This document shows, piece after piece, positions 3,265-32,000 of a stretch of DNA of 32,000 bases. The position numbers were made by a program, and so were the translations under genes. Location of the stretch: the NCBI RefSeq assembly GCF_037902255.1, contig NZ_CP147990.1, positions 30,001-62,000 on the forward strand. Reading direction: 5' to 3'. The stretch is from Candidatus Electrothrix sp. GW3-4 (GTDB taxonomy: Bacteria > Desulfobacterota > Desulfobulbia > Desulfobulbales > Desulfobulbaceae). The notes under the pieces were generated by a model. The model ran no database searches. It was not told where the DNA came from and saw only the letters and a program-made list of their open reading frames with translations. Positions within the stretch are counted from its first letter, which is position 1. Every line of letters starts with the position of its first letter.

Positions 3265-3443
3265 ATTTTTTCTCCTAGAAATATTTTTTTCTGTATTTTG
3301 TTGGAGATACAGAGCTATATTTTAGGTGAGCAGGTTGTAAGGAAAATACCCGTCCACTTATGTTGTCCAGTTTGAAAAGTTGATTGTTGATGTACTATAT
3401 TTAAAAATAAATATCATATTTTCTATATTCCGAAAAGATAGAC

Positions 3444-3938: not shown

Positions 3939-4095
3939 TCGGAAAAGTTATATTAAGGGTCTGGTATAGAAATAGTGATTAAAAAGCGCTCTGAACAGTG
4001 TCCAACCTGCGTGAAGCAGGCCGCTTTGGTATGATTTGGCATACATTCGGGTGGAGGGGCATGTACCGAAAAAAGAGACGTGTAGGGACGGTGTT

Positions 4096-5043
4096 GTGCG
4101 AGTATTGATTTATGGTGGTGGTGCGGTCGGGCTGGGGCTTGCTGCCTGCCTGCTCAAGAGAGGCGAACAGGTCGATATTCTGGCCCGGGAAAATACACGA
4201 CACGCCCTGCAAGGGAACGGGCTGCGGCAGAGCGGTATCTTGGGTGCGTACCATGCCGAGCCTCAGGCCTTTGGCTGTTTTTCCGGCATTGATGAGCTGC
4301 CGGGAACACCCTATGACCACATCCTGGTTTGTACGAAGTCCTTTGATTCACCAGCAGTGGCCCGAGACATTGCTGCCCATCCTCTCCTCTTCCATGAGCA
4401 AAGCGCGATTGTCCTGGTTCAGAACGGCTGGGGCAATGCAGAGATCTTTGCCGAGCATCTGCCCGCAAAGCGTATTTTCAATGCCCGGGTGATCACCGGG
4501 TTTTGCAGGCCGCAGGCAAATCAGGTGGAGATTACTGCCCATGTCCAGCCCATCCATATCGGGAGCCTGTTCGGGGCAGGACTTGCTCCCATAGAGGAAC
4601 TTTGTCGAACGATCAACCAAGGGGGGATCCCCTGTGCGGCTGCACCGGATATTGCCCGTGATCTCTGGGCCAAGATGCTCTTCAACTGCGCCCTGAATCC
4701 TCTGGGCGCGATTTTTAATGTGCCCTATGGTGCCCTGGCAGAACAGGAAAATTCTCGTCAGATCATGGCTGCGGTGATCCATGAGGTGTTCCTGGTGATG
4801 GAGGGGGCGGGCTACAGCACCCATTGGGCCAGTGCAGGGGAGTACCTGGAGGCCTTTTACGGGACCATCGTTCCCCTTGCAGCCAGACATCGCTCATCCA
4901 CCTTGCAGGATATCCAGGCCGGGAAAAAGACCGAGATTGATGCCTTGAGCGGGGCGGTTATTCTCTTGGGCAAGGAGTTGGGAATCGCGGTGCCGTGTAA
5001 TCGGATGCTTTATAATATGATTCGGTTTATGGAGTGGAGATGA
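4096..5043 (+). CDS. panE: 2-dehydropantoate 2-reductase (ApbA/PanE family)
   Basis: Rossmann motif VLIYGGGAVGLGLAACL. The C-terminal STLQDIQAGKKTEIDALSGAVILLGKELGIAVPCNRMLYNMI is typical of ketopantoate reductases. The ORF is open from TTG 4036, but GTG 4096 puts GxGxxG at the N-terminus as usual, so the start is uncertain. Confidence 0.85.
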   Translation: MRVLIYGGGAVGLGLAACLLKRGEQVDILARENTRHALQGNGLRQSGILGAYHAEPQAFGCFSGIDELPGTPYDHILVCTKSFDSPAVARDIAAHPLLFHEQSAIVLVQNGWGNAEIFAEHLPAKRIFNARVITGFCRPQANQVEITAHVQPIHIGSLFGAGLAPIEELCRTINQGGIPCAAAPDIARDLWAKMLFNCALNPLGAIFNVPYGALAEQENSRQIMAAVIHEVFLVMEGAGYSTHWASAGEYLEAFYGTIVPLAARHRSSTLQDIQAGKKTEIDALSGAVILLGKELGIAVPCNRMLYNMIRFMEWR

Positions 5044-5189
5044 ACGATTACCCTTTGCTTGTTTCCGAAGAAAACTGGCAAGCTGTCCAGGAAACTTTTT
5101 GTTTGTTGTTTGTTCCGGGAATGCGGGAATCCATTAGAGAAGGACTGGCGACTCCTGTTGAGGAATGTGATTCAGAGATTGAGTGGTGA
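5040..5189 (+). pseudogene. Truncated Phd/YefM-family antitoxin remnant (C-terminal half only, 49 codons)
   Basis: ATG 5040 overlaps the panE stop (ATGA). The translation is MNDYPLLVSEENWQAVQETFCLLFVPGMRESIREGLATPVEECDSEIEW. This matches the C-terminal half of YefM-type antitoxins (...VLxSEEDWxAxQETLYLLSIPGMRESIxEG...). The frame is closed by TAA at 5013-5015, so the N-terminal ~40 aa are absent. No toxin gene follows. Confidence 0.55.
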
Positions 5190-5238
5190 TGTGAAAGTTG
5201 ATTATAGCAGAAATCGTAACCTCTATTAGGTTCTTACT

Positions 5239-8200
5239 TTGACAGCAAAAGAGGTGCATGTCAACCAAACGACCGGTGGGATTCCTGCGTTACGAGGCTT
5301 CCGCAAGCAATTCCTTCATACGCTGAACAGTATTCTTTCGTCAGAAACAGGGCAGTTCTGTCCTGAAAGTTTGGAAGATTTTGCAGCTCGCGATAGTGCA
5401 GGTAAACTAACTGAAATTGTACAAGTTAAAGATTATAAAGCCAAATTAATATTTTCTGAGCTGAAAACTTTTTTTGAACGTGCTGCCGATTATATCAAAC
5501 GTTACCCGGACGTTCAGATTGTTCTGGCAAGCTACGGTGAGCTGGGGCCAGAATTACAGAAGTATATAGGTGCTGATGAAGCAGTCCTGAAAAAAAGCAA
5601 GAAATTCAACACACCGGAACTGCTGAAGGTCTTTCAGCGTCTCAAGCATCGTCCTCTCAATGAAGAGAAAGAACTCAGCTCTATCAAAGAACAGCTTACG
5701 CAGTTTCCTTTAACAACTGGTGATCTGGAAACGACCTTTGATCTGCTGATGCAGGAGCTTTACCGTGGTGCGGAACAGGAAAAGGGCTATACCCGGCAGG
5801 ATTTGCTGGAACGCTTGCAGAAGATCGGTCAATATCTTGCCGCTCGTGGAGCACTTCACAGGGAATGGGGTACCTCCATCATCCCGTTACTGGATCAGGA
5901 AATTGATGACAGGGAACAACTGCGCAAAGCGTTTCATGAAGGTGTGTCGGTTGGCTGGCGGCATATCCTGTCTGATCTGGATGTTAAACGCCAGCAGCAC
6001 TTAAACACCATTCAAGAAGGGTTCAAAAAAACAAATATTGTCATTGTACATGGCGCATCTGGGCAGGGAAAATCTGCTCTGGCCTATCGATATCTGCACG
6101 ATTACTGTCCTGCCTCATCCCGTTATGAAATACGGGATTTAAGTACATCGAAAAGAGCTTTGGAAGTTGCTGCCGCTCTTGCCGGGTATGGTATTCCCGT
6201 AACCTTCTATGTTGATGCCAGCCATAATGACAAAGGACTTGCTGAATTTTTACGGAGCATCAGTGAAATGAAGCATATTAGCTGTCTTGTCTCCATTCGG
6301 GAGGAAGACTGGCGGCTGACCGACATAACTTCGGCTGACATCATATTTGCAGATGTGGAGCTTGTTTTTAATCGTGAAGAGGCGCAGGCACTTTATGCGG
6401 CATGGGAAGATGAGAGAGGCAGTCGTTTCCCTGATTTTGAACAGGCTTGGGCAAAATTTTTAGAAGATGGGCCGTTACTCGAATTTGTTCATTTGCTGAC
6501 GCACACAGAGAATTTACGTCACCGTTTGCAAAAGCAATATGATCAGATTGCCGATGAGGTTGATTGCCAACAAAGGTCGGAAAACGATCTGAAGTTAATC
6601 AGACAAGTTGCGGTGGCCGGAGCTTGCGGTGCCCGTATTGATTTAGCCAAGTTAGCTAAACTGCCCGGCAACACAACACTGAAACGGTCAATTGACCTTT
6701 TAGAAAAAGAATATTTGCTGCGACTTAGCGGCGATTCCCGCCATTTAACAGGATTACATCCTGTCCGTTCTGAAATCCTCGCCTCCATTATTGCAGACCC
6801 TGTTCTGTGCCCTTGGGAAACATTGGCCTTGGATTGCCTGCCCTTGCTGGAGGATGCAGATATAGAAATATTCCTTCTCCATATCTTTCGTTTCCACTCA
6901 AAGGCCACGAGTGCCGTTCTTGCATATTTGAACACGGCAAAATACGAGACTTGGCTTGCGGCAAATGGTGTATTGCGTGCCCTGCTATGGCTGGGGATAT
7001 ATGAATACATTCAGAATAATGCCAAACTGATCAAGCAAGTTTATGATAAGGTCGGTCATGGTTGGTTTGCTGTTTTAGATTTTGTGGACTTTGTTGGAGT
7101 GCTGGATAAACCATTAGGCATTCTGGATTCTATTGAGGAAGGAAGGAAACAGACAGAACAATGGCAAAGAGAGCAACTGCCTAAATCGCAAGTATTCACA
7201 AGAATTGATGAATGGCTGCAACAGGTCATGCTTCCGTCAATTCCTGATTATGGAAAAGAGAATGACTGGAATGAATTTGGACAGGTTACTTATTGGACGG
7301 GATTCAGGAAAATCAACAAACGGATAGAGAAACTTATAGATTGGAATGCACTTTGTCAAACTGTAGAAACGTTACCTATAGAAACGACAGCGGTTTTGCT
7401 TTATGGTTTATGGCAGGCTCTTTCAAATACGGATGCTTTTATTCAATGGTACGAAGGTATTCGTCCAACTTTGCTTGATCGTTATCGTAAGGAAACTAAC
7501 ACGCCATATATTGAAGAACAAGATGGAATTATTCGAGCGTATTTCATTGCTCCTTTAGATGATGAAAAGAGAGAGGAAGAAGCTGCTCAAGAACATTCTG
7601 TTGTTTATTTACATGATGATACAGGAGATTCAAGTTCTGATGAAACGGAACCTTTTCATGCGTTGGCAATGCACCATGTCGATCTTTTGGCGCAATTAGT
7701 TCCAGATTGCGCAGGATATGGTTGTCAAGGGTACGGACATCAAGTTCTTGACATTGAATATCCTTATGATGAAACAACGAAAACAAATATTTCAGCAAGT
7801 TACCTGAAGCCAAGCTGGGTGGTGTATGTCAATAATACTGCCCGCATCTTGGGCAGCCACAGGTTTAGACCTGCAACATGGCAGGATTACAGTAACCAGA
7901 TGTTTGCTGTACGGAATGATGTGGTTTCAACTCTTGATGAACTCCACAGGCATTTAGTAAAACATTTTCGCCGCAAGGATGTCGTTCAAGAACTCAGCAA
8001 ATTATCAGATACTGAAGAATGGAAAAAAACGGCTCGGCAAGTAATGAATCGACCATCTTTTCCCGTGGAATCGCTGGATCAATTCGGATATACAGAGGAA
8101 AGGCTGAAGGATATTTCGACAGCCAAAGATCACGAAAGCAGAAAAACAGAAACTATCATTTCTGCATACCTACAGCAGTATCAGCCATACCTCAAAGCAA

Positions 8201-9441
8201 CAAGGGAATATTTTAATAGCATACGGAACTTTTTAAATTTAGCTGCATCAGTGATGCTGGCAAATGCCTTTCTTGGCAAAGCTGATACTTCTCAGAGACG
8301 TTTTGTTAAGCACCAACTTCAAGAATCAAACATTAAAATCACCAAACCTCTACTTCCCGTATTCAATCTGGCAGATTCCATAAAAAATCTTCCGCAATTT
8401 CAAACCTCCTTCCGAAAGCATTTTTCTCGCCTGATAGACAGTGAAGCACTTTCTCAGCTGGAACAGAAAGAGCGTGCAACGCTCCATTCCTTATGGCCTT
8501 TGTGGTTTTGCTTTGAGACAACCCCAAGCCGCCGAATGGCTGTTCCAGGAAAGACTGCATCAGATCAACTGGAACGGCGAAAAAAGGCTCTTCGGAGCAA
8601 GCTGTTCAAAGCGTTGGAAAAGGCTTCAACAGAGAGTCTTCAGTTCAATATTCTGGGCGATTCTGTTGAATTCGACAGCAAACCTGCGCTGTGGATAACG
8701 ATAGACGGTGAGAATCCATTTGAAGTCTATACGCAAACAGAGCAGCTTTATAAGCTGCTACGAAGTTCTTGGGGTGAGATCAAACTGCACTCACTTGATC
8801 ATTTTTCCTTGGAATTTCAATGGCGGAAGATTATTCTTGTGCCGATGTGCAAAGGAAAGCTCCTGGAAGCTCAGGCATGGATTATCTCAATCTATAAATT
8901 CATCAACGAGTTGGGCGGTGACCAGGGTTTGGCTGCTTACAACTTGATTCCTCAGCAAATTGAGCAGGAGGCTCTGGAGGCTTTAGGACTGAAAGTCTGG
9001 GAACCAGCATTGCTCAATGATGCGAAGCTGTTCCTTCAAAGTGCAGCAACATTGCAGGTGCGCCTTCGGCATTTGGTGCAAATGGGAGATATGCCGGATT
9101 CGGATGATACCGGAAGCGAGATCGTGCAGTCTTGGTTTGAGAAAACACAGGGAGCTGGAAGTCAGGAGTTGCAGCAACTATTTGATAAATCCAACCTGCT
9201 TATATCGGCGCATAATCAGCTCGTAAATGGAGAGGAAGAAACATATGCAAACGAATATTTACAGGTTGCTTATGAACAGTTAATGGAGGTTTACAATCAA
9301 TTTTTTCCTGAAGAACTGGAAGATGGCAAAGTTCATCTGACTCATGAAGCTATGAAAAAGTGGCAGGTACAGCTTTTGTCTGTTCAAGGTACTGTGTTCG
9401 TTATCTATTTATACTGGTGCGGATATGCTATTAATCGCTAA
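5239..9441 (+). CDS. Cap4/DUF4297-like PD-(D/E)xK nuclease + STAND-type P-loop NTPase + ~950-aa C-terminal region with no recognised motif (Avs/NLR-like)
   Basis: 1400-aa ORF starting at TTG 5239 or in-frame GTG 5254. The N-terminus reads TGGIPALRGFRKQF...ESLEDFAARDSAGKLTEIVQVKDY (GF..Q, ED, QxK). Walker A is GASGQGKS (aa 272-279, nt 6052-6075). Walker B is VTFYVDAS (D326). CLVSIRE fits an hhhSxR STAND motif. Confidence 0.85.
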   Translation: MTAKEVHVNQTTGGIPALRGFRKQFLHTLNSILSSETGQFCPESLEDFAARDSAGKLTEIVQVKDYKAKLIFSELKTFFERAADYIKRYPDVQIVLASYGELGPELQKYIGADEAVLKKSKKFNTPELLKVFQRLKHRPLNEEKELSSIKEQLTQFPLTTGDLETTFDLLMQELYRGAEQEKGYTRQDLLERLQKIGQYLAARGALHREWGTSIIPLLDQEIDDREQLRKAFHEGVSVGWRHILSDLDVKRQQHLNTIQEGFKKTNIVIVHGASGQGKSALAYRYLHDYCPASSRYEIRDLSTSKRALEVAAALAGYGIPVTFYVDASHNDKGLAEFLRSISEMKHISCLVSIREEDWRLTDITSADIIFADVELVFNREEAQALYAAWEDERGSRFPDFEQAWAKFLEDGPLLEFVHLLTHTENLRHRLQKQYDQIADEVDCQQRSENDLKLIRQVAVAGACGARIDLAKLAKLPGNTTLKRSIDLLEKEYLLRLSGDSRHLTGLHPVRSEILASIIADPVLCPWETLALDCLPLLEDADIEIFLLHIFRFHSKATSAVLAYLNTAKYETWLAANGVLRALLWLGIYEYIQNNAKLIKQVYDKVGHGWFAVLDFVDFVGVLDKPLGILDSIEEGRKQTEQWQREQLPKSQVFTRIDEWLQQVMLPSIPDYGKENDWNEFGQVTYWTGFRKINKRIEKLIDWNALCQTVETLPIETTAVLLYGLWQALSNTDAFIQWYEGIRPTLLDRYRKETNTPYIEEQDGIIRAYFIAPLDDEKREEEAAQEHSVVYLHDDTGDSSSDETEPFHALAMHHVDLLAQLVPDCAGYGCQGYGHQVLDIEYPYDETTKTNISASYLKPSWVVYVNNTARILGSHRFRPATWQDYSNQMFAVRNDVVSTLDELHRHLVKHFRRKDVVQELSKLSDTEEWKKTARQVMNRPSFPVESLDQFGYTEERLKDISTAKDHESRKTETIISAYLQQYQPYLKATREYFNSIRNFLNLAASVMLANAFLGKADTSQRRFVKHQLQESNIKITKPLLPVFNLADSIKNLPQFQTSFRKHFSRLIDSEALSQLEQKERATLHSLWPLWFCFETTPSRRMAVPGKTASDQLERRKKALRSKLFKALEKASTESLQFNILGDSVEFDSKPALWITIDGENPFEVYTQTEQLYKLLRSSWGEIKLHSLDHFSLEFQWRKIILVPMCKGKLLEAQAWIISIYKFINELGGDQGLAAYNLIPQQIEQEALEALGLKVWEPALLNDAKLFLQSAATLQVRLRHLVQMGDMPDSDDTGSEIVQSWFEKTQGAGSQELQQLFDKSNLLISAHNQLVNGEEETYANEYLQVAYEQLMEVYNQFFPEELEDGKVHLTHEAMKKWQVQLLSVQGTVFVIYLYWCGYAINR

Positions 9442-9483
9442 GATTATAGAGCCCATCAGGTTCGAAAAAAGGAGGAAATCAAC

Positions 9484-9525
9484 ATGAAATGTTCCTTAAA
9501 AACACCGAAAGGAGTAGTGCTATGA
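9484..9525 (+). CDS. 13-codon upstream ORF (MKCSLKTPKGVVL) coupled to the cytochrome c start
   Basis: GGAGGA at 9471-9476 lies 7 nt upstream of ATG 9484. Its TGA (9523-9525) overlaps ATG 9522 of the cytochrome gene as ATGA. Confidence 0.3.
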   Translation: MKCSLKTPKGVVL

Positions 9526-9899
9526 AAAAAGTTATTCCAATCTGTTTGTTTTCTCTTTTCTTCCTGAACAGCGCTCAGGCAGAGGAGTCCCTGGAAAGAG
9601 GCAAGAAAATTGTTGAGTCTCAGTGCGTTGTTTGTCATGATCTGACACCGGCAAAGAAAAACAATGTCGGGCCGTACCTGTTCGGTGTTGTCGGGCGGGT
9701 AGCCGGAACAGCTGAAGAGTATATTTACTCAAATGAGTTTGAGAAAGAAACGCAGCGTGCTGTCTGGGATAAGGAACAACTTGATACGTATCTCAAAAAC
9801 CCCAAAGAGTTCATTCCCGGAACAAAGATGGAATTTATCGGCGTGAAAAACGATCAGGATCGGGTTGACATTATCAGTTATCTGTCCACATTGAAATAA
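9522..9899 (+). CDS. Class I (mitochondrial/c2-type) cytochrome c, secreted
   Basis: Signal peptide MKKVIPICLFSLFFLNSAQA. Haem-binding motif CVVCH. GPYLFGVVGR and NPKEFIPGTKMEFIG (Met ligand) are classic cytochrome c/c2 motifs. GGAG lies 7 nt upstream of ATG 9522; the frame is also open from ATG 9489. Confidence 0.85.
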   Translation: MKKVIPICLFSLFFLNSAQAEESLERGKKIVESQCVVCHDLTPAKKNNVGPYLFGVVGRVAGTAEEYIYSNEFEKETQRAVWDKEQLDTYLKNPKEFIPGTKMEFIGVKNDQDRVDIISYLSTLK

Positions 9900-9954
9900 A
9901 AGGAAGGGAAACAGATGAGACAAGCATGCCTGGAAATCCACCCGACCTTGTCCA

Positions 9955-11457
9955 GTGAGTAAGCAATCCCAGACACCGCAATACCTGGCCGCCGTCGATC
10001 TCGGCTCTAACAGCTTCCACATGGTCGTGGCCCGGATCGAAGACGGTCATATCCACATCCTGGACAAGCTGAAGGAGATGGTGCGCCTTGGTGCCGGACT
10101 TGATAAGCAGAATCGGCTCTCCAAAGAGGCCCGTCAACGCGCCCTTGCCTGTCTTCACCGCTTTGGCGAGCGGGTGCGCAATTTTCCTCCGGGAACCGTG
10201 GCTGCTGTGGGCACCAAGACCCTGCGCCAGGCCAGAAAGTCCCGCCGCTTTGTGGAAAAGGCCAGTCAGGCCCTGGGACACCCTATTTCCGTTATCGGCG
10301 GTAAAGAGGAAGCCCGTTTAGTCTATCTCGGGGTTTCCCATTCCCTGGTTGCCGAAGAGGGAAGACGTTTTGTCATGGATATCGGCGGCGGCAGTACCGA
10401 GCTGATTCTCGGCGAAAATTTTGAGCCCCTGCACCTGCGCAGCCTCAATATGGGCTGTGTCAGTATGAGTCTCAAGGTTTTTCGCAACGGGGATTTGAGC
10501 AAGAACGCCTGGGCCCAGGCCAAGACCGCTGCCCATCTGGAGCTCCGTCCGGTCCGGCGGTATTTTCAAAGAGCGGATTGGGCCTCAGCTGCCGGGGCCT
10601 CGGGCACCATCAAGACGGTGGGGAGTATTGTTCAGGCCCTGGAGCTCAGCCCCTATCATATCACCTTGGACAGTCTCTACGAAATACGGGAGCGAATGAT
10701 TGCCGCAGGCCATCTGGATAAGCTGGATTTGCCCGGTCTGAAGGCGGAACGAAAACCGGTGATCGCTGGCGGCCTGGCAGTGCTTATGGCCACCTTTGAG
10801 GCCCTGCGCATCAAGACCATGCAGGTCTCTGATGGGGCCCTGCGGGAAGGCCTGCTCTATGAACGGCTGGGCCGGAGCCAGAGTGAAGACACCCGCCTGA
10901 AGACCATCGCAACGGTACAGCAGCGTTTTCAGATCAGCACCAGGCATGCAAAACGGATTAATCGGACAGCCCATCACCTGTTCAGCGTCTGTGAAGAGGC
11001 CTGGGAGCTCCAACCCGAGGATGCAGAGCTCCTCTACTGGGCTGGCAGTCTTCACGAGATTGGCCTTGCTGTCTCCCTGAGCGGCTACCAGAAGCACGGG
11101 GCCTACCTGCTGGACCATGCCGACCTGCCCGGATTTTCCTATGAAGAGCAGGATGGGATGAGTGTGCTGGTGCGCTGTCATCGCAAGAAGATAGCAAAGG
11201 GGCTCTTGCGCAAGATACCGGCAGCCAAGCGGGCAACTCTCCTGCGCCTTGCCGTCCTGCTGCGCCTTGCCACCCTGCTCCACCGTTCCCGTAAGGATGA
11301 GACCGCCATCATCAAGGAGGTCGTTGCCCAGGCAGATGGTCTCTCTCTTTGTTTTGCCGAGGGTGAGCTGGACCGCCATCCCCTCCAGCTTGTTAGTCTC
11401 CAGCAAGAGGCGATCTATTTACAGAATGTGCATTTTATCCTGAGATTTTCTTCATGA
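9955..11457 (+). CDS. ppx: Exopolyphosphatase / guanosine pentaphosphate phosphohydrolase (Ppx/GppA family)
   Basis: AAVDLGSNSFHMVVARI and DIGGGSTEL are ASKHA-fold phosphate motifs. A C-terminal helical HD-like region is present (LHEIGLAVS). 500 aa, the typical length. Confidence 0.9.
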   Translation: MSKQSQTPQYLAAVDLGSNSFHMVVARIEDGHIHILDKLKEMVRLGAGLDKQNRLSKEARQRALACLHRFGERVRNFPPGTVAAVGTKTLRQARKSRRFVEKASQALGHPISVIGGKEEARLVYLGVSHSLVAEEGRRFVMDIGGGSTELILGENFEPLHLRSLNMGCVSMSLKVFRNGDLSKNAWAQAKTAAHLELRPVRRYFQRADWASAAGASGTIKTVGSIVQALELSPYHITLDSLYEIRERMIAAGHLDKLDLPGLKAERKPVIAGGLAVLMATFEALRIKTMQVSDGALREGLLYERLGRSQSEDTRLKTIATVQQRFQISTRHAKRINRTAHHLFSVCEEAWELQPEDAELLYWAGSLHEIGLAVSLSGYQKHGAYLLDHADLPGFSYEEQDGMSVLVRCHRKKIAKGLLRKIPAAKRATLLRLAVLLRLATLLHRSRKDETAIIKEVVAQADGLSLCFAEGELDRHPLQLVSLQQEAIYLQNVHFILRFSS

Positions 11458-18316: not shown

Positions 18317-20053
18317 TTATTGTGCAACCAACAGCTCAATCGCCTCAACAAGCCGTATGAACTCTGCCCGATAGCCTTCTTCGTCCTTGTCTTTTGCACC
18401 CTTGGCCTGGGTCAGGATCTGGGGCCAGCTGATGCCGTCAGCATGCTTGGAGTCGCTGAGCAGCATCCCGAAACCGGCAACAGCGGCGGCAAAACGAAAA
18501 TCATTGCTGGTCTCCTCCAGAGTGATGTCGTTATCCTTGACCACCCTGCTGAGCAGGACAGATTCGGTTGCCTGGAGTGGTTTATAACGGAGTTTGATGG
18601 TCATCAACTCATCAGCATATTGGCTCTCTGAGGTTTGCTTCGTCTTCTGATATTTGAGGGGGTCTACCGTTGGTTGGCCTGTAGCGCCAACCGGAATCAA
18701 TTCGTACAGGGCCGTGACCGTGTGTCCCACCCCGATCTCACCGGCGTCCTTTTGGTCGTCGTTAAAGTCTTCATCAGCAAGGGCCCGGTTTTCATAGCCA
18801 ATGAGCCTGTAGGCATCGACCTGTGCCGGGTTGAATTCCACCTGGATTTTGACATCCTTGGCCAAGGCAAAGAGCGTGCCACTCATCTCCTTGACCATGA
18901 CTTTTTTTGCCTCCAACAGGTTGTCGATATAGGCATAGTTGCCGTTGCCCTTATCGGCCAGGATCTCCATGGTGTCATCATGATAGTTGCCCATGCCGAA
19001 GCCGAGGACTGTCAGGTAGACGCCAGATTTCCTCTTCTCCTCAACCAGTTTCTGCAGTTCGCCACGACTGGTGATGCCCACATTGAAGTCGCCGTCTGAG
19101 GCAAGGATGATCCGGTTATTGCCGTTGGGAAGAAAGGATTGTGCTGCCAATTGGTAGGCCGTGAGAATGCCGCTGGAGGCGTGGGTTGAGCCACCGGCAC
19201 CGAGTGCATCAATGGCAGCGGTGATTTTCTGCTGTTCGGAACCGGGGGTCGGGGGCAGCATGACCTGGTCATGGCCAGCATAGACCACCAGGGCAATCCG
19301 ATCGTTCTTGCCCAGTTGTTTGACCAGCATCTTCATGGATTTTTGCAGGAGAGGAAGCTTGTTGGGCGAGGACATGGATCCTGAGACGTCGATCAAAAAG
19401 ACGAGGTTCGATGGGGGCAGATCTTTTTTGTCCATATCCTTTGCCTTCAGGCCGATGCGAACCAGTTTGTGGCTGTCATTCCAGGGACAGGGGCCAAGCT
19501 CTGGGGTCACCGAAAAAGGATGCTCATTATCCGGTTGGGGATAGGTGTAAGAAAAATAGTTGATCAGCTCCTCAATGCGGACAGCACCCTTGGGTGGAAT
19601 TCTTCCCTCATTGATAAAACGGCGTACATTGCTGTAGGAGGCGGTATCCACGTCAATGGAGAAGGTGGACAGGGGATCGTTGGTCGTGTTGATGAATCCG
19701 TTCTCGTTCTGTGCGTTATATGATTCTGTGTTCCACTTAGGTGTGGGCTGGCTGGTTATGGAGGGGGATGGGGGGCTTGGGAGAGCAGCAGAAGAAAAAC
19801 GGTTGAGTCCTTTTCCGTTGCTCGCAGAGGTTCTCATCTCTTGCAGTCGAGCTTTTTCGCGCGGCCTGTTGTCCTGCGGTGATAGCGTTGATTCGTCATG
19901 TATTCCAATTGCCTCATCCTCTGTCGTGTCAAGATCAACACTCGTTTCCTGCCGTACTATATCCTTTTTCGGGGATTTTTTTTGGGGAGGTTCAGAAGAA
20001 CAGGCGATTAGGGTAAGCAAGAGGATAACCGGAGTGGCTTTTTTAATATTCAT
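18317..20053 (-). CDS. YfbK-like von Willebrand factor type A (vWA) domain lipoprotein
   Basis: Lipobox LLTLIAC. DPLSTFSIDVDTASYSNVRRFINEGRIPPKGAVRIEELINYF is the typical N-terminal module of YfbK-type proteins. The vWA MIDAS motif is LIDVSGSMS. GGAG RBS. Confidence 0.9.
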   Translation of the reverse strand: MNIKKATPVILLLTLIACSSEPPQKKSPKKDIVRQETSVDLDTTEDEAIGIHDESTLSPQDNRPREKARLQEMRTSASNGKGLNRFSSAALPSPPSPSITSQPTPKWNTESYNAQNENGFINTTNDPLSTFSIDVDTASYSNVRRFINEGRIPPKGAVRIEELINYFSYTYPQPDNEHPFSVTPELGPCPWNDSHKLVRIGLKAKDMDKKDLPPSNLVFLIDVSGSMSSPNKLPLLQKSMKMLVKQLGKNDRIALVVYAGHDQVMLPPTPGSEQQKITAAIDALGAGGSTHASSGILTAYQLAAQSFLPNGNNRIILASDGDFNVGITSRGELQKLVEEKRKSGVYLTVLGFGMGNYHDDTMEILADKGNGNYAYIDNLLEAKKVMVKEMSGTLFALAKDVKIQVEFNPAQVDAYRLIGYENRALADEDFNDDQKDAGEIGVGHTVTALYELIPVGATGQPTVDPLKYQKTKQTSESQYADELMTIKLRYKPLQATESVLLSRVVKDNDITLEETSNDFRFAAAVAGFGMLLSDSKHADGISWPQILTQAKGAKDKDEEGYRAEFIRLVEAIELLVAQ

Positions 20054-26120: not shown

Positions 26121-26161
26121 AAGAACAAGCATAGTAATACGATCTTATGAGGAAAGAAAGT

Positions 26162-26419
26162 ATGTCCGGGATAAAAACAGCGATTTCCTTGGATGAACAT
26201 CTGTTCAATGAAGTCAAAGAGACGGCTCGTGACCTGAATACGTCCAGAAGCGGTGTGATCAGGCAGGCATTGCTTGAATTTATGGAAAGACGGAAGAATC
26301 AACGTCTGCTTGAGCAACTGAATGAAGCATATAAGGACGGGCCGACAGGGGAAGAAGAGAATATTGCCCGATCAATGCGGAATGCGCAGCAGGGGATAAC
26401 AGAGCAGGAGCCGTGGTGA
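26162..26419 (+). CDS. Ribbon-helix-helix (CopG/MazE-like) antitoxin
   Basis: MSGIKTAISLDEHLFNEVKETARDLNTSRSGVIRQALLEFM is an RHH beta-strand/helix/helix pattern. The RBS AGGAAAGAAAG lies before ATG 26162. The gene overlaps the toxin start. Confidence 0.8.
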   Translation: MSGIKTAISLDEHLFNEVKETARDLNTSRSGVIRQALLEFMERRKNQRLLEQLNEAYKDGPTGEEENIARSMRNAQQGITEQEPW

Positions 26420-26769
26420 TTCGGCAGGGGGAAATCTACTGGCTTGATGTTGGCAAGCCGAGAGGTTCTGAGCCGGGCTATCGGCATCCGTATCTCGTTG
26501 TTCAGAATAATCTCTTCAATGCGAGTCTGATCAACACGGTTGTTGTCTGTTCGTTAACGTCCAATCTTCGCCGGGCCGCAGCTCCGGGTAATGTTCTGCT
26601 TCGTAAAGGGGAGGCGAATTTGCCGAAAAAGAGCGTGGTCAATGTTTCGCAGATATTCACGGTGAATAAATCTGACCTGACAGAAAAGATCGGGCAGATT
26701 TCCAAGCAGCGGTTCCTGGAGATACTGGAAGGGATCAGGTTGCTTACGGAGCCGAGAGAACTCTCCTGA
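26413..26769 (+). CDS. mazF: MazF/PemK-family endoribonuclease toxin
   Basis: RQGEIYWLDVGKPRGSEPGYRHPYLVVQNNLFN...VVVCSLTSN...VVNVSQIFTVNKSDL is the typical PemK/MazF SH3-like fold signature. GTG start overlapping the antitoxin stop. Confidence 0.85.
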   Translation: MVIRQGEIYWLDVGKPRGSEPGYRHPYLVVQNNLFNASLINTVVVCSLTSNLRRAAAPGNVLLRKGEANLPKKSVVNVSQIFTVNKSDLTEKIGQISKQRFLEILEGIRLLTEPRELS

Positions 26770-26879
26770 TTGAGGCTGGCTTCGCCTTCCTCCGAGGGGA
26801 GTTTCACAGAAAGTCACGGGTGAGTTCTTTGTAAAGTTACAGGTGTGTTCAGATTTATATCTATTACAGGCACATTGCT

Positions 26880-27275
26880 CTAAGTTAAAGCGTCTAACAT
26901 CAAGAGTGCTGTTCCAACAAGTAAAGATAATGCACATGTAATTGCCGAACTAGGAGATACTTGAGACGCATTCGAGAAGAAAGAGACAAGAATTGGTAAT
27001 CCTATCCCCAAGAATCCCCCTCCAACTGGTCCATATAGTTTCTTCTTCCAGTTTCTTCGCTCAATCGAACGAAGCCTTTTCTTTGCTTCTTCTACATGGA
27101 TACAGCTTATCTGCTGTACACCATCCCGTGCTGCAACCCGTGCAGCTTCCAAGACTAATTCTGCTCCATACTCAGTAGAGAAGTCTTCTATCTTTGTCTT
27201 TGCTTCTGGAGAATGAGGTTCACCTTCTGTATCAAGCATTTTTTTTACAACATTATAGGGTGCAGTATTACTCAT
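26880..27275 (-). CDS. 131-aa membrane protein: N-terminal histone-fold-like domain + two C-terminal TM helices; translationally coupled to the ROCO gene
   Basis: ATG 27275 is preceded by AAGGGGGA. It overlaps the ROCO stop codon by 8 nt (ATGAGTAA). TM segments are LYGPVGGGFLGIGLPILVSFF and AITCALSLLVGTALLMLDAL. The fold call for the N-terminal ~70 aa is explained in the findings. Confidence 0.7.
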   Translation of the reverse strand: MSNTAPYNVVKKMLDTEGEPHSPEAKTKIEDFSTEYGAELVLEAARVAARDGVQQISCIHVEEAKKRLRSIERRNWKKKLYGPVGGGFLGIGLPILVSFFSNASQVSPSSAITCALSLLVGTALLMLDALT

Positions 27276-29781
27276 GCTTATCCCCCTTTTGTGGATCATC
27301 AAGAACTCTAGCTCGGACTTTAGATTTTATTCCTTCAAAGAGACTATTAAGATTGATACCGACACCAAAAGCATTCGGCTTTAACTCAAGATTTATGTTG
27401 CTTGCCTCCGTTGCCGCCTCCTTGTGCTCAAGCTCCGCCTGAAGTTTCTGCATCGTTCTTAGTATCTCATCTTCCTTGCTTGGTTCTACTAAGCCCAGCA
27501 GTTCCTTCACGCTGTACCGCTTCTTTGAGCCATCTGGAATGAAAATGTCCGCACCAGCCTCAGCAAAATTGATTAAAGTTTCATAGTCGGCACTGCGCTG
27601 CGGGTCGTCAGGCATTGGAATGCGTTCGCTAACCTCAAGCTTTTCGAAGCTATTGTTTATTTCTCTTAGTGTGAACCAGAGGAAGCTGAGATACTCCTTG
27701 CGGCGCGGACCATGCACCCAGAGGTAGATACGCCGGGCCTCATGATCCGCCTTGACCACGGCATTGGTGCCGCTTGCCTTGTCCTCAAGTACAACCCCTG
27801 TACGCCAGCATAGACCCGATTTGATATTTTGATGCACCTTGACCATGAAGCGGGAAAAGACCGAGGGCGGCAGGAAGTCCTGATACTGAAGAATGAAGCC
27901 CAATGAGCCGCTATAGTCAAAGGTAAATTCCGGTTCATCAATAGGAAAGAACTGGGGGAGGAGAACGGCCTCCTCACCGACACCCCAGCATAGCTGAAAC
28001 TTCTTCATCAGCTCCAGAATAAATACATGTGTATGTATCGGCCAAGAGTGCTTTTCCTCTTCTTCATGCTGCAGAATTTTCTTAAGGCTTTCCAATTGCA
28101 GAAGACCGTTGCTGTCCGCCATCTCCTTAGCCGTGATGATTTTATATACCGCTTGCGTTATCCAGACCGGATCAAGTACATGCATGGCATTTAGAATGTA
28201 GTCATCGAAATGTATGGCTGCACCTAGGTCATGAAGAAAGCTAAGTAGAGTTTTCTGATTTTTTTCCTCGGAGATGCCTGCTTTTTTACAGATAGTTTCA
28301 TACTCCTCACAGCTAATGTAGGGCTTGCCCATTTGTCCGATACGCTGCTTGACCGCAAACCAGCTTTTCGGCCAAGGAGTATCCAGAAGCGGCATTTGTC
28401 GCAGCTCTTTGAGTAGTGCAACCCGGAACTCCTCAATACCTACATTGTTTTTGCATGAGGTGGGATAGAAGCCAGTTATGGTCGGATACTTACGTTGCAG
28501 ATGCACACAGTTGAGCCCAAACCCGCAACTCTCATCCTGCTTGTTGAGTACGACCAGCACGGGCGAGTCCCCGCCAAAGCTCTCAATATGCTGAAGCCAG
28601 TATTCGGGTCGCTCCTCCTTACGCCCATCAAGCACTAAGATATACAGGCTGCGTTTGGAAAGGAAGAATTGGTGGGTGGTGTGCTGGATAACTTGGCCAC
28701 CAAAGTCCCAAATGTTGATTCTGATCTTTCTGTCGCCGATATCCTGTTGCCAGCCATTAATATTGATACCATGCGTAGTGTCCTCGTGATGGTCAAAGGA
28801 CAAGCCGAGTAGCCGCTTGACTAAGGAAGTCTTGCCTGCCGCACCGTCGCCGACGACGAGAACTTTTACCTCGCTGAGGGACTGATCTTTTGACGGGAGG
28901 AGAACAGGATCAGAAACCACTCCTATTGAGGTGTTGGGTTTAAAGGCAGCGAAATACTGACAGATGGCATCAATGCCCCGAGTGGCTATTTCATACGGCG
29001 GAGAGGTGAGGGGATTGCGACCGAAGTAAAGTTCCTTCAGGTTCTTGAGCTTACAGATTTCTCGCGGCAGGCTGCTGAGATGGTTGTTGCTGAGGTTAAG
29101 CACCATCAGCTTTGTTAGCTGGCAGATTTCTGGTGGCAGAGTGGTGAGTTCATTATCCAGGAGGAAAAGTTTTTTCAGACTCGTAAGCTTGCAAATTTCC
29201 AATGGCAGTACATTGAGCCGATTGTTGCTGAGGTTAAGCTCTGTCAAATTCGTGAGCTGTCCGATTTTCGGCGGCAGGTTGCTGAACTGGTTATGGCGGA
29301 GGTCAAGTACCGTCAGCGTCGTGAGCTGGTAGATTTCCGGCGGTAAACTTCTGAGATGGTTGTGGCCAAGATTAAGTCCCGTCAGCTGCTTGAGCTGACC
29401 GATTTCCGATGGAGGGTTGTCGATATAGTTGCTGTAGAGGTCAAGCTCCTTTAGTTTTGTAAGCTTGAGAATTCCTGACGGCAGATTTCTGAGTTGGTTG
29501 TTACGGAGGTCAAGAACCGTCAGATTCGTGAGCTGGCTAATTTCCGGCGGCAGAGTGGTGAGTTTATTATTCCAGAGCCTGAGTTTTTGTAGATTCGTGA
29601 GTTTGCGGATTTCCGGCGGCAGGCTACTGAACTGGTTATTGCAGAGGTCAAGCTCCGTCAGATTCGTGAGCTGACCTATTTCCGACGGTAATTCTTTCAA
29701 CCCTTGTCCGCTCAAGCGAAGCGTTGTTGTCCCGCTTGCCTTGGCCTCTTCTATCTTCTGCAACACTCTTTCATTCGTCAT
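27268..29781 (-). CDS. ROCO-family GTPase: 11 x 23-aa leucine-rich repeats + Roc (Ras-of-complex) GTPase + COR domain + short C-terminal tail
   Basis: LRR units follow LTNLTELDLxNNxLxxLPPEIxQ (aa ~15-270). Roc motifs: G1 GDGAAGKT (aa 311-318, nt 28828-28851), G3 WDFGGQ (aa 358-363), G4 NKQD (aa 413-416), and TSCK. A long COR-like region reaches ~aa 780 (…IPMPDDPQRSADYETLINFAEAGADIFIP…). Confidence 0.9.
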   Translation of the reverse strand: MTNERVLQKIEEAKASGTTTLRLSGQGLKELPSEIGQLTNLTELDLCNNQFSSLPPEIRKLTNLQKLRLWNNKLTTLPPEISQLTNLTVLDLRNNQLRNLPSGILKLTKLKELDLYSNYIDNPPSEIGQLKQLTGLNLGHNHLRSLPPEIYQLTTLTVLDLRHNQFSNLPPKIGQLTNLTELNLSNNRLNVLPLEICKLTSLKKLFLLDNELTTLPPEICQLTKLMVLNLSNNHLSSLPREICKLKNLKELYFGRNPLTSPPYEIATRGIDAICQYFAAFKPNTSIGVVSDPVLLPSKDQSLSEVKVLVVGDGAAGKTSLVKRLLGLSFDHHEDTTHGININGWQQDIGDRKIRINIWDFGGQVIQHTTHQFFLSKRSLYILVLDGRKEERPEYWLQHIESFGGDSPVLVVLNKQDESCGFGLNCVHLQRKYPTITGFYPTSCKNNVGIEEFRVALLKELRQMPLLDTPWPKSWFAVKQRIGQMGKPYISCEEYETICKKAGISEEKNQKTLLSFLHDLGAAIHFDDYILNAMHVLDPVWITQAVYKIITAKEMADSNGLLQLESLKKILQHEEEEKHSWPIHTHVFILELMKKFQLCWGVGEEAVLLPQFFPIDEPEFTFDYSGSLGFILQYQDFLPPSVFSRFMVKVHQNIKSGLCWRTGVVLEDKASGTNAVVKADHEARRIYLWVHGPRRKEYLSFLWFTLREINNSFEKLEVSERIPMPDDPQRSADYETLINFAEAGADIFIPDGSKKRYSVKELLGLVEPSKEDEILRTMQKLQAELEHKEAATEASNINLELKPNAFGVGINLNSLFEGIKSKVRARVLDDPQKGDKHE

Positions 29782-29873
29782 CGCCTGCGCACCTCATACA
29801 TTGATAAAGAAGACTGAATTGCCCTGCATCCCGCCCCGCTATAAATCACGGGGCTATTCCCCGCTGCCCCACT

Positions 29874-30140
29874 GGGGATTGCCCTTCGCCCCTTGGGAAT
29901 CATCATGCGTCACAGGGGGATTACCCTTCGCCCCTTGGTAATCATCGTCCGTCACAAGGGGATTGCCTTACGCCCCTTGGGGATCATCTTTCGTCACAAG
30001 GGGATTGCCTTCCACCCCTTGGGAATCATCATACGTCACAAGGGGATTGCCTTGCGCCTCTTGGTAATCATCGTTCGTCACAAGGGGATTATCTTCCTTC
30101 CCTTGGGGATCATCATGCGTCACAAGGGGATTGCTCTTCA
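29874..30140. repeat. Tandem array of 6 full + 1 partial 42-bp units, each with an internal 7-bp inverted repeat
   Basis: Unit starts at 29874, 29916, 29958, 30000, 30042, 30084 and 30126. Consensus GGGGATTGCCTTNCGCCCCTTGGRAATCATCNTNCGTCACAA. The hairpin is CAAGGGG-N11-CCCCTTG. A degenerate copy (GGGGCTATTCCCC) lies at about 29850. Confidence 0.9.
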
Positions 30141-30198
30141 GTCCAAAAAAGATATCCCGGAGGGACGCAACGTTAACAGTGGAACGAATCGCAACACC

Positions 30199-30921
30199 TC
30201 AACGATTTGCAAACCAGATCGCATAATCTTTTACTGGCTGATAGTTGTCTGAGGATTTATCCAGGACTTCTAAATCACATAAGGGAAACTCATACTTCTC
30301 GCGTCCATGCCGTAACGACACCAGTATTCCATAGATATCCTCAATATCATCATCAAAAACATCATATTCTTCATCATCATCTTCATAAATACCCACTACC
30401 GTTACCTGATCTCCTTCTTGTAACGGCCCCTCCTCTTGACACTCAAAGATCTCTGCCTCAAAGGGAAATTCCAACTCATCCTCAAGATACTCCTGCCATA
30501 CCTCAAAGGCCGCCTCTTCACTCTCATCTTCAGCGTTGTCTAAGACGGCCTGTATTCTCCTGTCTATTTCCTCTGATTCTTCAGGATCTTCATCTGTCCA
30601 AGTAAAATCATGCTTGCTTTCAATATCTTCAATTGCTTTTACGACATCGTCCACACTATCTCTGGCCGTTGTCTGTTCAACATCTTCTGGTGCAAGATAC
30701 ACTCTGGCCCAGTCCAACCCTTCTACTTCACAGTAGACAATCGTCTTATCAGATAGCTGCTTGAGACTCAGGCTATCCCAATCTATGCCAATCAAACCGT
30801 CTTCTTCCTCAATTTCAGCGACCCGTCCCTGCCATCCGCCGATGTTGATATTTAAATCAAGTTCTTCAACATTCGGTTTTACAATGACAGAATCACCGAG
30901 CTGGAGTTTGCCTTGTGCCAT
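30199..30921 (-). CDS. Hyperacidic protein with CcbP-like (calcium-binding) C-terminal half
   Basis: GAGGA RBS before ATG 30921 (MAQGKLQLGD...). The stretch AAFEVWQEYLEDELEFPFEAE...YGILVSLRHGREKYEFPLCDLEVLDKSSDNYQPVKDYAIWFANR resembles my recollection of cyanobacterial CcbP (WYYYLDDTLEFPF...DWLYW). Long D/E runs are present. Confidence 0.7.
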   Translation of the reverse strand: MAQGKLQLGDSVIVKPNVEELDLNINIGGWQGRVAEIEEEDGLIGIDWDSLSLKQLSDKTIVYCEVEGLDWARVYLAPEDVEQTTARDSVDDVVKAIEDIESKHDFTWTDEDPEESEEIDRRIQAVLDNAEDESEEAAFEVWQEYLEDELEFPFEAEIFECQEEGPLQEGDQVTVVGIYEDDDEEYDVFDDDIEDIYGILVSLRHGREKYEFPLCDLEVLDKSSDNYQPVKDYAIWFANR

Positions 30922-31040
30922 AATAATCCTCAATAAATACTATTTCCAAGCTGATACAATCTTCGATTGATGTTACCTCCCTACCCGGCTGTTCCTTCAG
31001 GACAAGGAATACATCCCAGAGGCACGGGGTGCCAAACATA

Positions 31041-31069
31041 TTGACATCACCATGAAGCTACACCATAAT
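31041..31069 (+). promoter_or_regulatory. Sigma70-like promoter P2, near-copy of P1, upstream of the AAA ATPase gene
   Basis: TTGACA-17 nt-CATAAT. It shares with P1 the spacer core ATGAAGCTNCA and the extended CATAATAAG. Confidence 0.5.
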
Positions 31070-31128
31070 AAGGCGCAATCTTAATAAAATATCAGCGGGA
31101 AAGAAAGGCTGTTTTGCCGGAGAGCGTC

Positions 31129-32000
31129 ATGAAACTAAAAGAAGTGCATATAAAGGGATACAAATCTATTGACGGGCGGGTCGGTCAACGCATCCCCTTC
31201 GGCGACCTGACAGTCTTGCTCGGAGCCAACGGTTCTGGCAAAAGCAATCTGGTTTCATTCTTCAAGATGCTCAACTTCATGACAAGCGGAGCCTTGCAGC
31301 AATACGTGGGTAAATACGGGGTAAGCCATCTGCTTTTTTACGGCCCAAAACACACCGAATCCATCTCCTTTGAGCTTGCCCTTGCATCTGAATCCTCCCA
31401 TGATACCTATGAGGTGAGACTCGCGCACGGCTTGCCGGATCGCTTATTCATCAGCGGCGAAAAGATTACCTATCAGAAGATCAGCCCTCCTTCTCCACGA
31501 CCACAGGAGTATTTTCTTGACGCAGGTGGAAGTGAATCAGGGTTGGCAAGCGACCAAAGGAAAACCAGTGCAGTCTTGTGTCGCCTTTTGTCGGGGGTAC
31601 GGAGTTATCAGTTTCATGACACCTCAGACACAGCCAAGATGAAAGATCGCGGCTATATTGATGATGCCAAATATCTCCGCAGCGATGCAGGAAATTTGGC
31701 GGCTTTCCTGAATATGCTTAAACAAACGAAAGCGTATCAAAGGTATTATGATCGAATAGTTCGGCATGTGCAGCGCGTTATGCCGCAATTTCATGACTTC
31801 GACTTGGAACCGATTCCCGGCAATAAAGATTATGTTCGGCTGAACTGGCAAGATGCATCAGACAGTGATTATTTATTCGGTCCCGATCAGATATCAGACG
31901 GTTCCCTCCGTTTTATGGCCCTGGCAACTCTGCTGCTTCAGCCTCCTGAACTCCTGCCGACCTTTATCGTTCTGGATGAACCCGAGCTGGGGCTTCATCC
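31129..32000 (+). CDS. AAA/ABC-type ATPase (COG4637-like, AAA_21-type), 3' end outside window
   Basis: This ORF is absent from the supplied ORF track; I translated it by hand. The start is MKLKEVHIKGYKSIDG. Walker A is GANGSGKSN. The ABC-signature-like segment is ISDGSLRFMALATLLL. Walker B is FIVLDEPELGLH, at the window edge. GGAGAG RBS. Confidence 0.85.
   Translation, partial: MKLKEVHIKGYKSIDGRVGQRIPFGDLTVLLGANGSGKSNLVSFFKMLNFMTSGALQQYVGKYGVSHLLFYGPKHTESISFELALASESSHDTYEVRLAHGLPDRLFISGEKITYQKISPPSPRPQEYFLDAGGSESGLASDQRKTSAVLCRLLSGVRSYQFHDTSDTAKMKDRGYIDDAKYLRSDAGNLAAFLNMLKQTKAYQRYYDRIVRHVQRVMPQFHDFDLEPIPGNKDYVRLNWQDASDSDYLFGPDQISDGSLRFMALATLLLQPPELLPTFIVLDEPELGLH

Follow-up and report, generated by a model that had tools for sequence, protein, structure and literature searches.

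A ROCO GTPase gene overlapping a gene for a histone-fold protein with two predicted transmembrane helices in Candidatus Electrothrix

The genomic stretch analysed here comprises 32,000 nt of Candidatus Electrothrix sp. GW3-4 (contig NZ_CP147990.1, positions 30,001–62,000; hereafter the window) and carries on its minus strand two overlapping genes. The first encodes a ROCO GTPase with leucine-rich repeats (LRRs), and the second encodes a 131-aa protein that joins a histone fold to a hairpin of two transmembrane (TM) helices. Comparison with 18 fetched relative loci (labelled L001–L018) indicates that the two proteins are probably coupled, functionally or physically. As a tentative reading, we propose that the ROCO protein would be a GTP-switched sensor docking by a short C-terminal motif on the histone-fold membrane protein, which would act as a dimer and form the membrane output of a conflict-type system. 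The features of the pair, in window coordinates, are the following.

27268–29781, minus strand: ROCO gene, 837 aa, with 11 LRRs, Roc, COR-A, COR-B and a C-terminal tail (open reading frame (ORF) call and Pfam)
28912–29781, minus strand: LRR region, aa 1–290, eleven 23-residue units (Pfam LRR families; units counted in the translation)
28402–28866, minus strand: Roc G domain, aa 306–460 (Pfam Roc, 4e-29; Ras, 2e-11)
27949–28371, minus strand: COR-A, aa 471–611 (Pfam PF16095, 5.4e-37)
27496–27906, minus strand: COR-B, aa 626–762 (Pfam PF25497, 7.8e-29)
27271–27495, minus strand: C-terminal tail, aa 763–837 (75 aa), in which the ROCO-family segment ELKPNAFGVGINLNSLF is followed by the partner-linked motif and an acidic end (tail comparison)
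27304–27333, minus strand: candidate docking motif GIKSKVRARV, aa 817–826 (pattern scan of ORFs)
27268–27288, minus strand: coupling junction, with a Shine-Dalgarno-like AAGGGGGA at 27288–27281, the ATG at 27275–27273, the ROCO stop TAA at 27270–27268 and the overlap ATGAGTAA (sequence)
26880–27275, minus strand: small gene, 131 aa, with a histone-fold domain, a basic juxtamembrane helix and a two-TM hairpin (homologues and AlphaFold2 (AF2) model)
27051–27257, minus strand: histone-fold domain, aa ~7–75, with alpha1 at 7–14, alpha2 at 23–50 and alpha3 from 58 (profile, Foldseek and Pfam)
26886–27032, minus strand: TM hairpin, with TM1 at aa 82–101 (Gly-rich GPVGGGFLGIGL), the loop NASQVSP and TM2 at aa 108–130 (hydropathy, charge and model)

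The large protein is a bona fide ROCO. Pfam recovers LRR_8 (1e-34), Roc (4e-29), Ras (2e-11), COR-A (5e-37) and COR-B (8e-29), with both COR domains directly after Roc. The G motifs are intact, with GDGAAGKT starting at aa 311, DFGGQ at 359 and NKQD at 413. This agrees with the first-pass annotation of the DNA, which had described an 837-aa ROCO with 11 LRRs, complete Roc motifs and a COR region and had numbered the P-loop lysine K317. No domain was found by the Pfam scan after COR-B, neither an effector nor an EAD adaptor domain. The LRRs are the most divergent part of the protein, with 69% identity to the L012 orthologue versus 81–93% for the Roc and COR domains.

The coding-strand junction of the two genes reads AAAAGGGGGATAAGCATGAGTAA. 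The ATG of the small gene overlaps the ROCO stop by 8 nt and GGGGGA sits 5 nt 5′ of it; the overlap that had been noted earlier is read directly in the sequence. Homologues of the small protein begin at the same Met as the 131-aa ORF of the window. A word-indexed search returned 16 close homologues, one of them named as Ca. Electrothrix, and 34 alignment columns are invariant across them. These, together with the strong domain E-values, indicate that the two ORFs are genuine genes and did not arise by chance. A ROCO-small fusion made by frameshifting was considered and rejected, since the small gene lies in the +1 frame and no slippery site is visible in the junction sequence. A promoter and terminator scan gave only background level, and Rfam had no match over 26700–31200.

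The ROCO-small pair occurs in seven distinct loci (the window, L001, L002/L003, L012, L013, L007–9 and L017) from cable bacteria and other Desulfobulbaceae, in which the small proteins are 31–90% identical. In L012, a metagenome-assembled genome (MAG) of Ca. Electrothrix marina, the ROCO protein is 80% and the small protein 70% identical to those of the window; in L001, an 88-kb JGI contig, the values are 63% and 56%. L013, a Desulfobulbaceae MAG, and L002/L003 encode short ROCO proteins of 630 aa with only 1–2 LRRs, and the partner is kept. In L007–9 the small protein is 39% identical and lies 3′ of an LRR-Roc-COR protein, and in L017 it is 31% identical and lies 3′ of a COR-B C-terminus. The overlap of the pair is 8 or 4 nt, except in L017, where it is called as about 50 nt from a doubtful TTG start. 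The 8-nt form is found in L001, L002, L012 and L013, and also in L010, a locus described below; the 4-nt form is found in L007–9 and in the more distant L018. The pair stands in at least three kinds of neighbourhood: with ilvD and a hybrid histidine kinase in the window, L001 and L012; with a CCA-adding/DHH enzyme and an HTH_5 protein in L002; and with leuA, TerC and glmS in L013. The kept adjacency and overlap bear out the proposal that the two genes form a translationally coupled module. The expectation that homologues of the small protein would always stand beside Roc-COR genes holds for the near family, in these seven loci, but not for its distant members, which are not linked to ROCO genes.

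An ENA contig of 1011 bp contributes another arrangement, since its one ORF of 285 aa (P0167) has 4–5 LRRs with a C-terminal cap fused directly to the histone-fold/2-TM part, Roc-COR being absent. This arrangement is known from one contig only and may represent either an artefact of assembly or a natural variant produced by deletion or fusion.

The small protein of the window had no match in Pfam or PADLOC at standard thresholds. An exhaustive profile search (representative clusters, E ≤ 1e-3) delineated around it an unannotated family of at least 321 clusters, almost all of 110–170 aa and with the same layout. A profile and a structural model were built on a 118-sequence alignment of this family. 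Compared with the PDB, the profile matched the archaeal histones HMfA, HMfB and HPhA (E 3e-4), as well as H2B. When the 118 members were scanned individually against Pfam, 25 matched CBFD_NFYB_HMF and 14 matched Histone, while two AAA+ lid families were matched by 53 and 22; this last similarity is weak, and the AAA+ lid and the histone fold have a helix-strand-helix motif in common. The AF2 model has a predicted local distance difference test score (pLDDT) of 88.3 and supersedes an earlier one made from a shallow 17-sequence alignment (pLDDT 60). It contains helices at residues 7–14, 23–50 (28 residues), 58–101 and 108–130, so that the model shows a histone fold in which alpha3 runs on into TM1. 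In Foldseek, the top 50 PDB matches of the model were all histones or NF-Y, with probability 1.0 and root-mean-square deviations of 2.2–3.5 Å over 62–64 columns. A viral structure library gave weak matches only, with giant-virus histones at the top.

The stretch of aa 64–81 carries a net charge of +8 and precedes TM1; therefore, the N-terminal domain is predicted to be cytoplasmic and the hairpin to have an N-in/C-in orientation. Residues G85, G86 and G90 in TM1 and G121 in TM2 are nearly invariant across the 118 family members. In the profile alignment, loop 2 reads GVQQIS in the window protein (family consensus "adtvs"), versus GRKTIK at the archaeal DNA contact. A DNA-binding histone of the nucleosomal or archaeal kind was therefore rejected, because the contact residues are absent from this loop. 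Membership of SLATT was also rejected: this family was neither among the Pfam hits of the window protein nor among the 25 most frequently matched of the 141 families hit by the 118 members (E ≤ 1). Other searches added little, as a scan of genome contigs recovered two loci only, a word-indexed search with the broad alignment gave few extra proteins, and two scans of metagenome contigs yielded no relative.

BLAST clustering divided the family into clades A, B and C, of which clade A is the near family. The small protein of L010 is 40% identical to that of the window, and the protein encoded before it is not a ROCO: ACT domains are recognised in it, together with a weak match to TIR_2. Clade B (L016, L018 and L011) has a helical-repeat protein encoded upstream. 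L016 (positions 1–2161) and L018 present the same gene order, namely a motif-tailed helical-repeat protein, the histone-fold/2-TM protein and a short TIR_2 protein. The intergenic gaps in these operons are given as 5–6 nt; in L016 the TIR_2 protein has 151 aa and begins 6 nt 3′ of the small gene. The short TIR_2 proteins have weak SAVED_TIR/ThsB-like matches in PADLOC, and the relatives of the small protein have no PADLOC match. In clade C, the small gene of L014, L015 and L004 is overlapped from upstream by a gene that encodes a second small 2-TM protein, and L005 has a stand-alone small gene beside an AraC regulator. The small upstream 2-TM proteins showed no SLATT match at E ≤ 0.5. In L014 (positions 3691–6442), a 129-aa protein of this kind overlaps the gene of the histone-fold/2-TM protein P0040, which is followed at 97 nt by a gene for a 620-aa reverse transcriptase (RT; PADLOC RT_UG21, 3e-86), with two integrase genes after it. 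UG21 belongs to Class 1 of the UG/Abi RTs; Mestre et al. 2022 left its status in defence inconclusive and noted that other UG/Abi RTs pair with SLATT effectors of 2–3 TM helices.

The ROCO, ACT/TIR-like and helical-repeat proteins encoded upstream of the small genes share a C-terminal motif of the form G-[IV]-[RK]-S-x-[IV]-R-x-[RK]-h. Among the ROCO partners it reads GIKSKVRARV in the window, GIRSNVRGRV in L001, GIQSKVRDRV in L002, GVRTAIRSKL in L007–9 and GVKSTIRDKY in L017. In the partners that are not ROCO proteins it reads GIRSRIRSRL in L010, QVRSEIRQFI in L011, QIRSDIDAKI in L016 and RIQSAIKQRV in L018. A six-frame scan of long ORFs from the window and the 18 loci (88,736 residues) gave 13 matches to the pattern, all in the ORF directly 5′ of a histone-fold/2-TM gene and all at 4–12 aa from the C-terminus, with none elsewhere in the scanned ORFs. 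The carriers include ROCO, ACT/TIR-like and helical-repeat proteins, which are non-homologous. In the window protein the motif stands about 55 residues after COR-B, and its distribution suggests that it may be a docking peptide for the histone-fold domain.

Among related ROCO C-termini the motif is missing in 54 of 55 (P0171–P0225), in support of its link to the partner; the named sources of these C-termini are almost all Ca. Electrothrix, Ca. Electronema and Desulfobulbus sp. F1. The exception is a fragment from Desulfobulbus sp. F1 with GIRSKVRDRV. Most of the 54 end in ...ELKPNxFGxGxNLNELFxRIxxxKKQKR, which is amphipathic and polybasic, and this composition suggests a peptide directly targeting the membrane. 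Since the KPNxFGxGxNLNxLF segment is common to most of the 55 C-termini and only the motif tracks the partner, the tail of the window protein consists of a ROCO-family segment plus a partner-linked motif. The whole tail was consequently rejected as the coupling element; the charged tail pointed out earlier does exist after COR-B, but the candidate for coupling is the specific motif near its end. Many of the P0171–P0225 entries are short gene calls and could represent contig ends or pseudogenes.

Two ROCO paralogues (828 and 838 aa) are encoded 1.6 kb apart in L001 (positions 3430–10008), with a DUF6883/DUF4926 gene pair between them. The docking motif and the small partner accompany only the second ROCO; the paralogue without an adjacent partner lacks the motif.

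From these features a mechanism can be proposed in which both genes would encode one machine, with the LRR-Roc-COR protein as cytoplasmic sensor and GTP switch. The C-terminal ~20 residues of the ROCO protein, with GIKSKVRARV, would dock on the cytoplasmic histone-fold domain of the small protein. The latter probably dimerises like all histone folds, which would place a four-helix Gly-rich TM bundle in the inner membrane, and in the resting state a dimeric ROCO protein would sit at the membrane in a 2:2 complex with the histone-fold dimer. If CtRoco is taken as the guide, binding of a ligand to the LRRs or of GTP may open and monomerise the ROCO protein and free the region after COR-B. This opening would alter or release the hold of the tail on the histone-fold dimer, and the Gly-rich TM hairpins could then rearrange or oligomerise. 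The output at the membrane would most likely be a loss of integrity or potential, as in the TM effectors of abortive infection, or alternatively the assembly of a membrane-bound signalling platform. Cable bacteria are filamentous, and abortive depolarisation would be sensible in a filament of connected cells. The module would then be a ROCO (AP-GTPase)-centred conflict system of multicellular bacteria with its effector or adaptor in trans.

The signs for a conflict system are the LRRs as the fastest-evolving domain, the variable interval around the pair with its HEC-01A-like ATPase, the lower identity of the pair than of the flanking ilvD, and the presence of TIR and UG-class RT genes in sister operons, and a role of the pair in conflict or defence is plausible, although unproven. 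The same observations allow a broader proposal, in which the histone-fold/2-TM proteins would be a hitherto unrecognised class of membrane hub or effector into which unrelated sensors plug through the shared motif (LRR-Roc-COR, ACT/TIR-like, helical-repeat proteins with TIR and possibly UG21 RTs), the Gly-rich TM bundle killing or arresting the cell. We regard this generalisation as speculative and rather unlikely, and it is likewise doubtful that the small protein of the window is itself a membrane-damaging effector.

Several observations weigh against a defence role and against the mechanism as a whole. In three Electrothrix genomes the pair is found at one fixed chromosomal site next to ilvD, a pattern resembling vertical inheritance, and in L002 and L013 it stands beside housekeeping genes. 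PADLOC-DB v2, which had been suggested earlier as a check, contains no system matching the pair, with only mad8 at E 1.3e-3 for the ROCO protein and nothing for the small protein. No match of the small protein was found by tblastn against plasmids and phages, and the literature search revealed no experimental link of ROCO proteins or of TM-bearing histone folds to phage defence. Clade C, the largest group of the family, is not linked to ROCO genes, and its distant members are stand-alone or paired only with a small 2-TM protein in metabolic contexts. In operons with a TIR protein, the effector could be the TIR and not the TM hairpin. The motif pattern with its 13 matches was written post hoc from few sequences, which limits its weight, and Foldseek supports the histone fold with consistent matches but weak E-values (~0.1). 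The scheme of a sensor, a switch and a membrane partner outlined in the first-pass annotation fits the data in its logic, while its defence part remains circumstantial, given the missing PADLOC match and the fixed position beside ilvD.

The conserved chromosomal position with its housekeeping neighbours and the missing PADLOC match also fit an arrangement in which the small protein would be just an anchor, that is, a membrane receptor localising the ROCO protein, or other proteins in the sister clades, within a non-immune and lineage-specific signalling of cable bacteria, with no membrane damage. LRRK2 itself is brought to membranes by partner proteins. Moreover, the amphipathic and polybasic end of most related ROCO C-termini makes the partner-linked end a possible alternative route to the membrane, which is a further point against the proposed conflict system. 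However, no enzymatic output domain is present in the ROCO protein, so nothing would deliver an output if the partner served as an anchor alone; the family-wide conservation of the Gly-rich TM1 and of G121 in TM2 points to a specific assembly of the helices more than to a passive anchor. The associations of the family with TIR and UG21 RT, the fast evolution of the LRRs and the variable surrounding interval also argue against it, and we regard it as rather unlikely, though it is the main rival explanation. A role of the small protein in regulating the ROCO GTPase is less probable again; it would then act from the membrane upon its partner, and not downstream of it, for example as a stabiliser of the dimer or monomer or in the manner of a guanine nucleotide dissociation inhibitor, a GTPase-activating protein or a guanine nucleotide exchange factor. 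The position of the motif directly after the COR-B dimerisation region, which is nucleotide-dependent in CtRoco, and the fixed stoichiometry implied by translational coupling would suit such a regulator. Nevertheless, the same family and motif are used by partners without a GTPase (ACT/TIR-like and helical-repeat proteins), and therefore the conserved function cannot be GTPase-specific.

The presence of a histone fold and of the very basic (+8) juxtamembrane helix could also suggest a DNA-binding tether by which the ROCO protein would control the attachment of chromosomal or invading DNA to the membrane. This is very improbable, as the loop-2 contacts GRKTIK are replaced by the non-basic GVQQIS, the basic stretch is accounted for by the positive-inside rule, and TM histones were judged unlikely to bind DNA where they are described by Schwab et al. 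2024 (PMC11390915). Finally, short overlaps are common in compact bacterial operons, and the two proteins could be unrelated neighbours that do not cooperate, with an incidental overlap. Adjacency and overlap across seven loci and at least three neighbourhoods, down to 31% identity, a partner-specific tail motif in every case and the natural LRR fusion in P0167 leave this explanation strongly disfavoured. The coupled sensor and membrane protein is the arrangement that we prefer, with the conflict role held tentatively.

The closest structural model for the large protein is CtRoco of Chlorobium tepidum, the structural model for LRRK2, which has the same LRR-Roc-COR-A-COR-B core with intact G motifs. 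Nucleotide-free CtRoco is a compact dimer with its LRRs folded onto COR, whereas GTP converts it into an open monomer in which the C-terminal residues of COR-B, which belong to the dimer interface, gain flexibility (PMC11052575). By analogy, the window protein probably follows a GTP-driven dimer-to-monomer cycle. CtRoco differs in having a C-terminal region of ~150 residues, in contrast to the 75-aa motif tail and coupled membrane partner of the window protein, and no partner or output of CtRoco was found in the literature searched. Bacterial ROCO proteins are the main models of LRRK2, the Parkinson's-disease protein, and a coupled partner with a motif of ~10 residues makes their role testable.

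Kaur and coworkers predicted LRR-AP-GTPase-COR counter-invader systems whose C-terminal effectors or EAD adaptors come in at least 24 alternatives and which have many paralogues in filamentous bacteria; these are computational predictions (Kaur et al. 2021, PMC8195603). The window lineage resembles them in its LRR, Roc and COR domains, its fast LRRs and its paralogues: N-terminal LRRs, AP-GTPase and COR are all present, and there are two ROCO paralogues in L001 and 55 related C-termini. It lacks the C-terminal effector or EAD. In the Kaur systems the effector (TIR, caspase, trypsin, GT4, FGS and others) or the EAD is fused in cis, whereas the window has a motif and a protein in trans, and a histone-fold/2-TM domain is not among the C-terminal domains named in the account of these systems there (PMC8195603, Fig. 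6D). In the Runella gasdermin system, a Roc-COR-CHAT protease is encoded next to a gasdermin pore-former (Johnson et al., bioRxiv 10.1101/2021.06.07.447441). It is alike in that a Roc-COR protein is encoded beside a membrane-acting protein, but its output is the proteolytic activation of gasdermin, and no gasdermin, CHAT or caspase domain was found in the window pair. In view of the Runella system and of the predictions set out in PMC8195603, the earlier statement that no ROCO with a membrane partner had been described was too strong. The logic of an NTPase sensor with a TM output and the view of bacterial ROCO proteins as immune-type switches are already published as predictions.

The small protein corresponds in architecture to the "TM histones" of Schwab et al. 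2024 (PMC11390915, Fig. 7), there identified by structure prediction in ~18 entries as a histone fold with a C-terminal TM domain, in which alpha1 is "often missing". The match is one of architecture: fold and C-terminal TM domain are shared and the usual DNA-binding residues are absent, but alpha1 is present in the window protein. The description of TM histones in PMC11390915 proposes no function, operon partner or link to ROCO, TIR or RT. The present pair offers a first operon context and functional hypothesis for a protein of TM-histone type, along with a link to TIR and RT operons. SLATT and other 2-TM effectors of CBASS and UG/Abi-RT systems are alike in being small 2-TM proteins beside sensor or enzyme modules, including TIR and UG RTs. 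They differ because the cytoplasmic part of the window protein is a histone fold and no SLATT match stood among the families listed. The histone-fold domain of the Ras activator SOS binds membrane lipids and regulates signalling, and Lokiarchaeota have Rab-GTPase histones (PMC11390915). As in the window pair, a Ras-superfamily GTPase is there joined to a histone fold; however, those are single-polypeptide fusions without TM helices, and the likeness drawn here is one of function. The window pair would be a third example of Ras-superfamily GTPases with histone folds.

The pairing of a ROCO with a histone-fold/2-TM protein, the shared motif and the TIR and UG21 contexts were not found described in the literature searched. 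If true, docking of a motif on a histone fold would be a new adaptor principle for modular immune systems, like that of EAD and Death-like domains but with a short linear motif. Should the class of membrane hubs exist, it would provide the first physiological output of a prokaryotic ROCO and a non-chromatin role of the histone fold in membrane signalling.

The surroundings of the pair in the window include the following features.

26147–26769, plus strand: MazE/MazF (RHH_1 and PemK, 1e-27; Pfam)
29874–30134: tandem repeat with 6.2 copies of a 42-bp unit (84% matches), within the 417 bp separating the ROCO start from the CcbP-like gene
30199–30933, minus strand: CcbP-like gene, 244-aa acidic protein with a C-terminal CcbP-type calcium-binding domain (6e-19)
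31129–32000, plus strand: AAA_21 (COG4637-type) ATPase, running off the window end (Pfam/PADLOC)

The pair had been placed between a MazF module and a COG4637-like ATPase in an AT-richer block. Both flanking elements are present, but the CcbP-like gene and the 42-bp repeat also intervene, on the side between ROCO gene and ATPase. The GC content of the ROCO gene (0.486) is near the window mean (0.494), AT-richness being confined to the small gene (0.414) and the CcbP-like gene (0.431); the outlier is ilvD (0.594). The interval between ilvD and the T2SSE ATPase is variable, with MazEF, the pair, the repeat, the CcbP-like gene and the ATPase in the window, the pair and the ATPase in L012, and the pair, DUF4926/DUF6883, a second ROCO and the CcbP-like gene in L001. 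The pair is 56–80% identical between the genomes, with a flanking ilvD that is 90–91% identical. The insertion of MazEF between ilvD and the small gene is strain-specific and absent from the syntenic L001 and L012, where the gap from the small gene to ilvD is about 160–240 bp. MazEF was rejected as a system component on account of this absence. In PADLOC, the ATPase has a strong match to the candidate-system protein HEC-01A (4e-89 for the window protein, 7e-127 for that of L012). Its gene is separate from the pair, and any partner gene of its own lies past the window end; in L012 (positions 4142–5260, minus strand) it adjoins the ROCO gene in divergent orientation.

The CcbP-like protein is found with 87% identity beside the ROCO genes in L001 and is absent from L012. 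Each unit of the 42-bp repeat contains the short palindrome CCCCTTG...CAAGGGG, so that a row of hairpins in the transcript or the DNA is possible. The window has no second array of this kind, none of the 18 fetched loci contains it, and Rfam gave no match to it. In L013 (positions 239–1882), at 4 kb from the short ROCO/small pair, a caspase (Peptidase_C14) is fused to an FGE-sulfatase, an architecture typical of the conflict systems predicted in the work of Kaur et al. (PMC8195603). In the window itself, positions 5239–9441 of the plus strand encode a 1400-aa protein with the novel STAND NTPase 5 domain (PF25199, 5e-9), a large conflict-type NTPase, with a CI-repressor-like gene upstream (3444–3938). 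Positions 421–1890 of the plus strand encode a transglutaminase-elicitor-like protein (1.5e-40), and positions 18317–20053 of the minus strand encode a vWA/YfbK protein.

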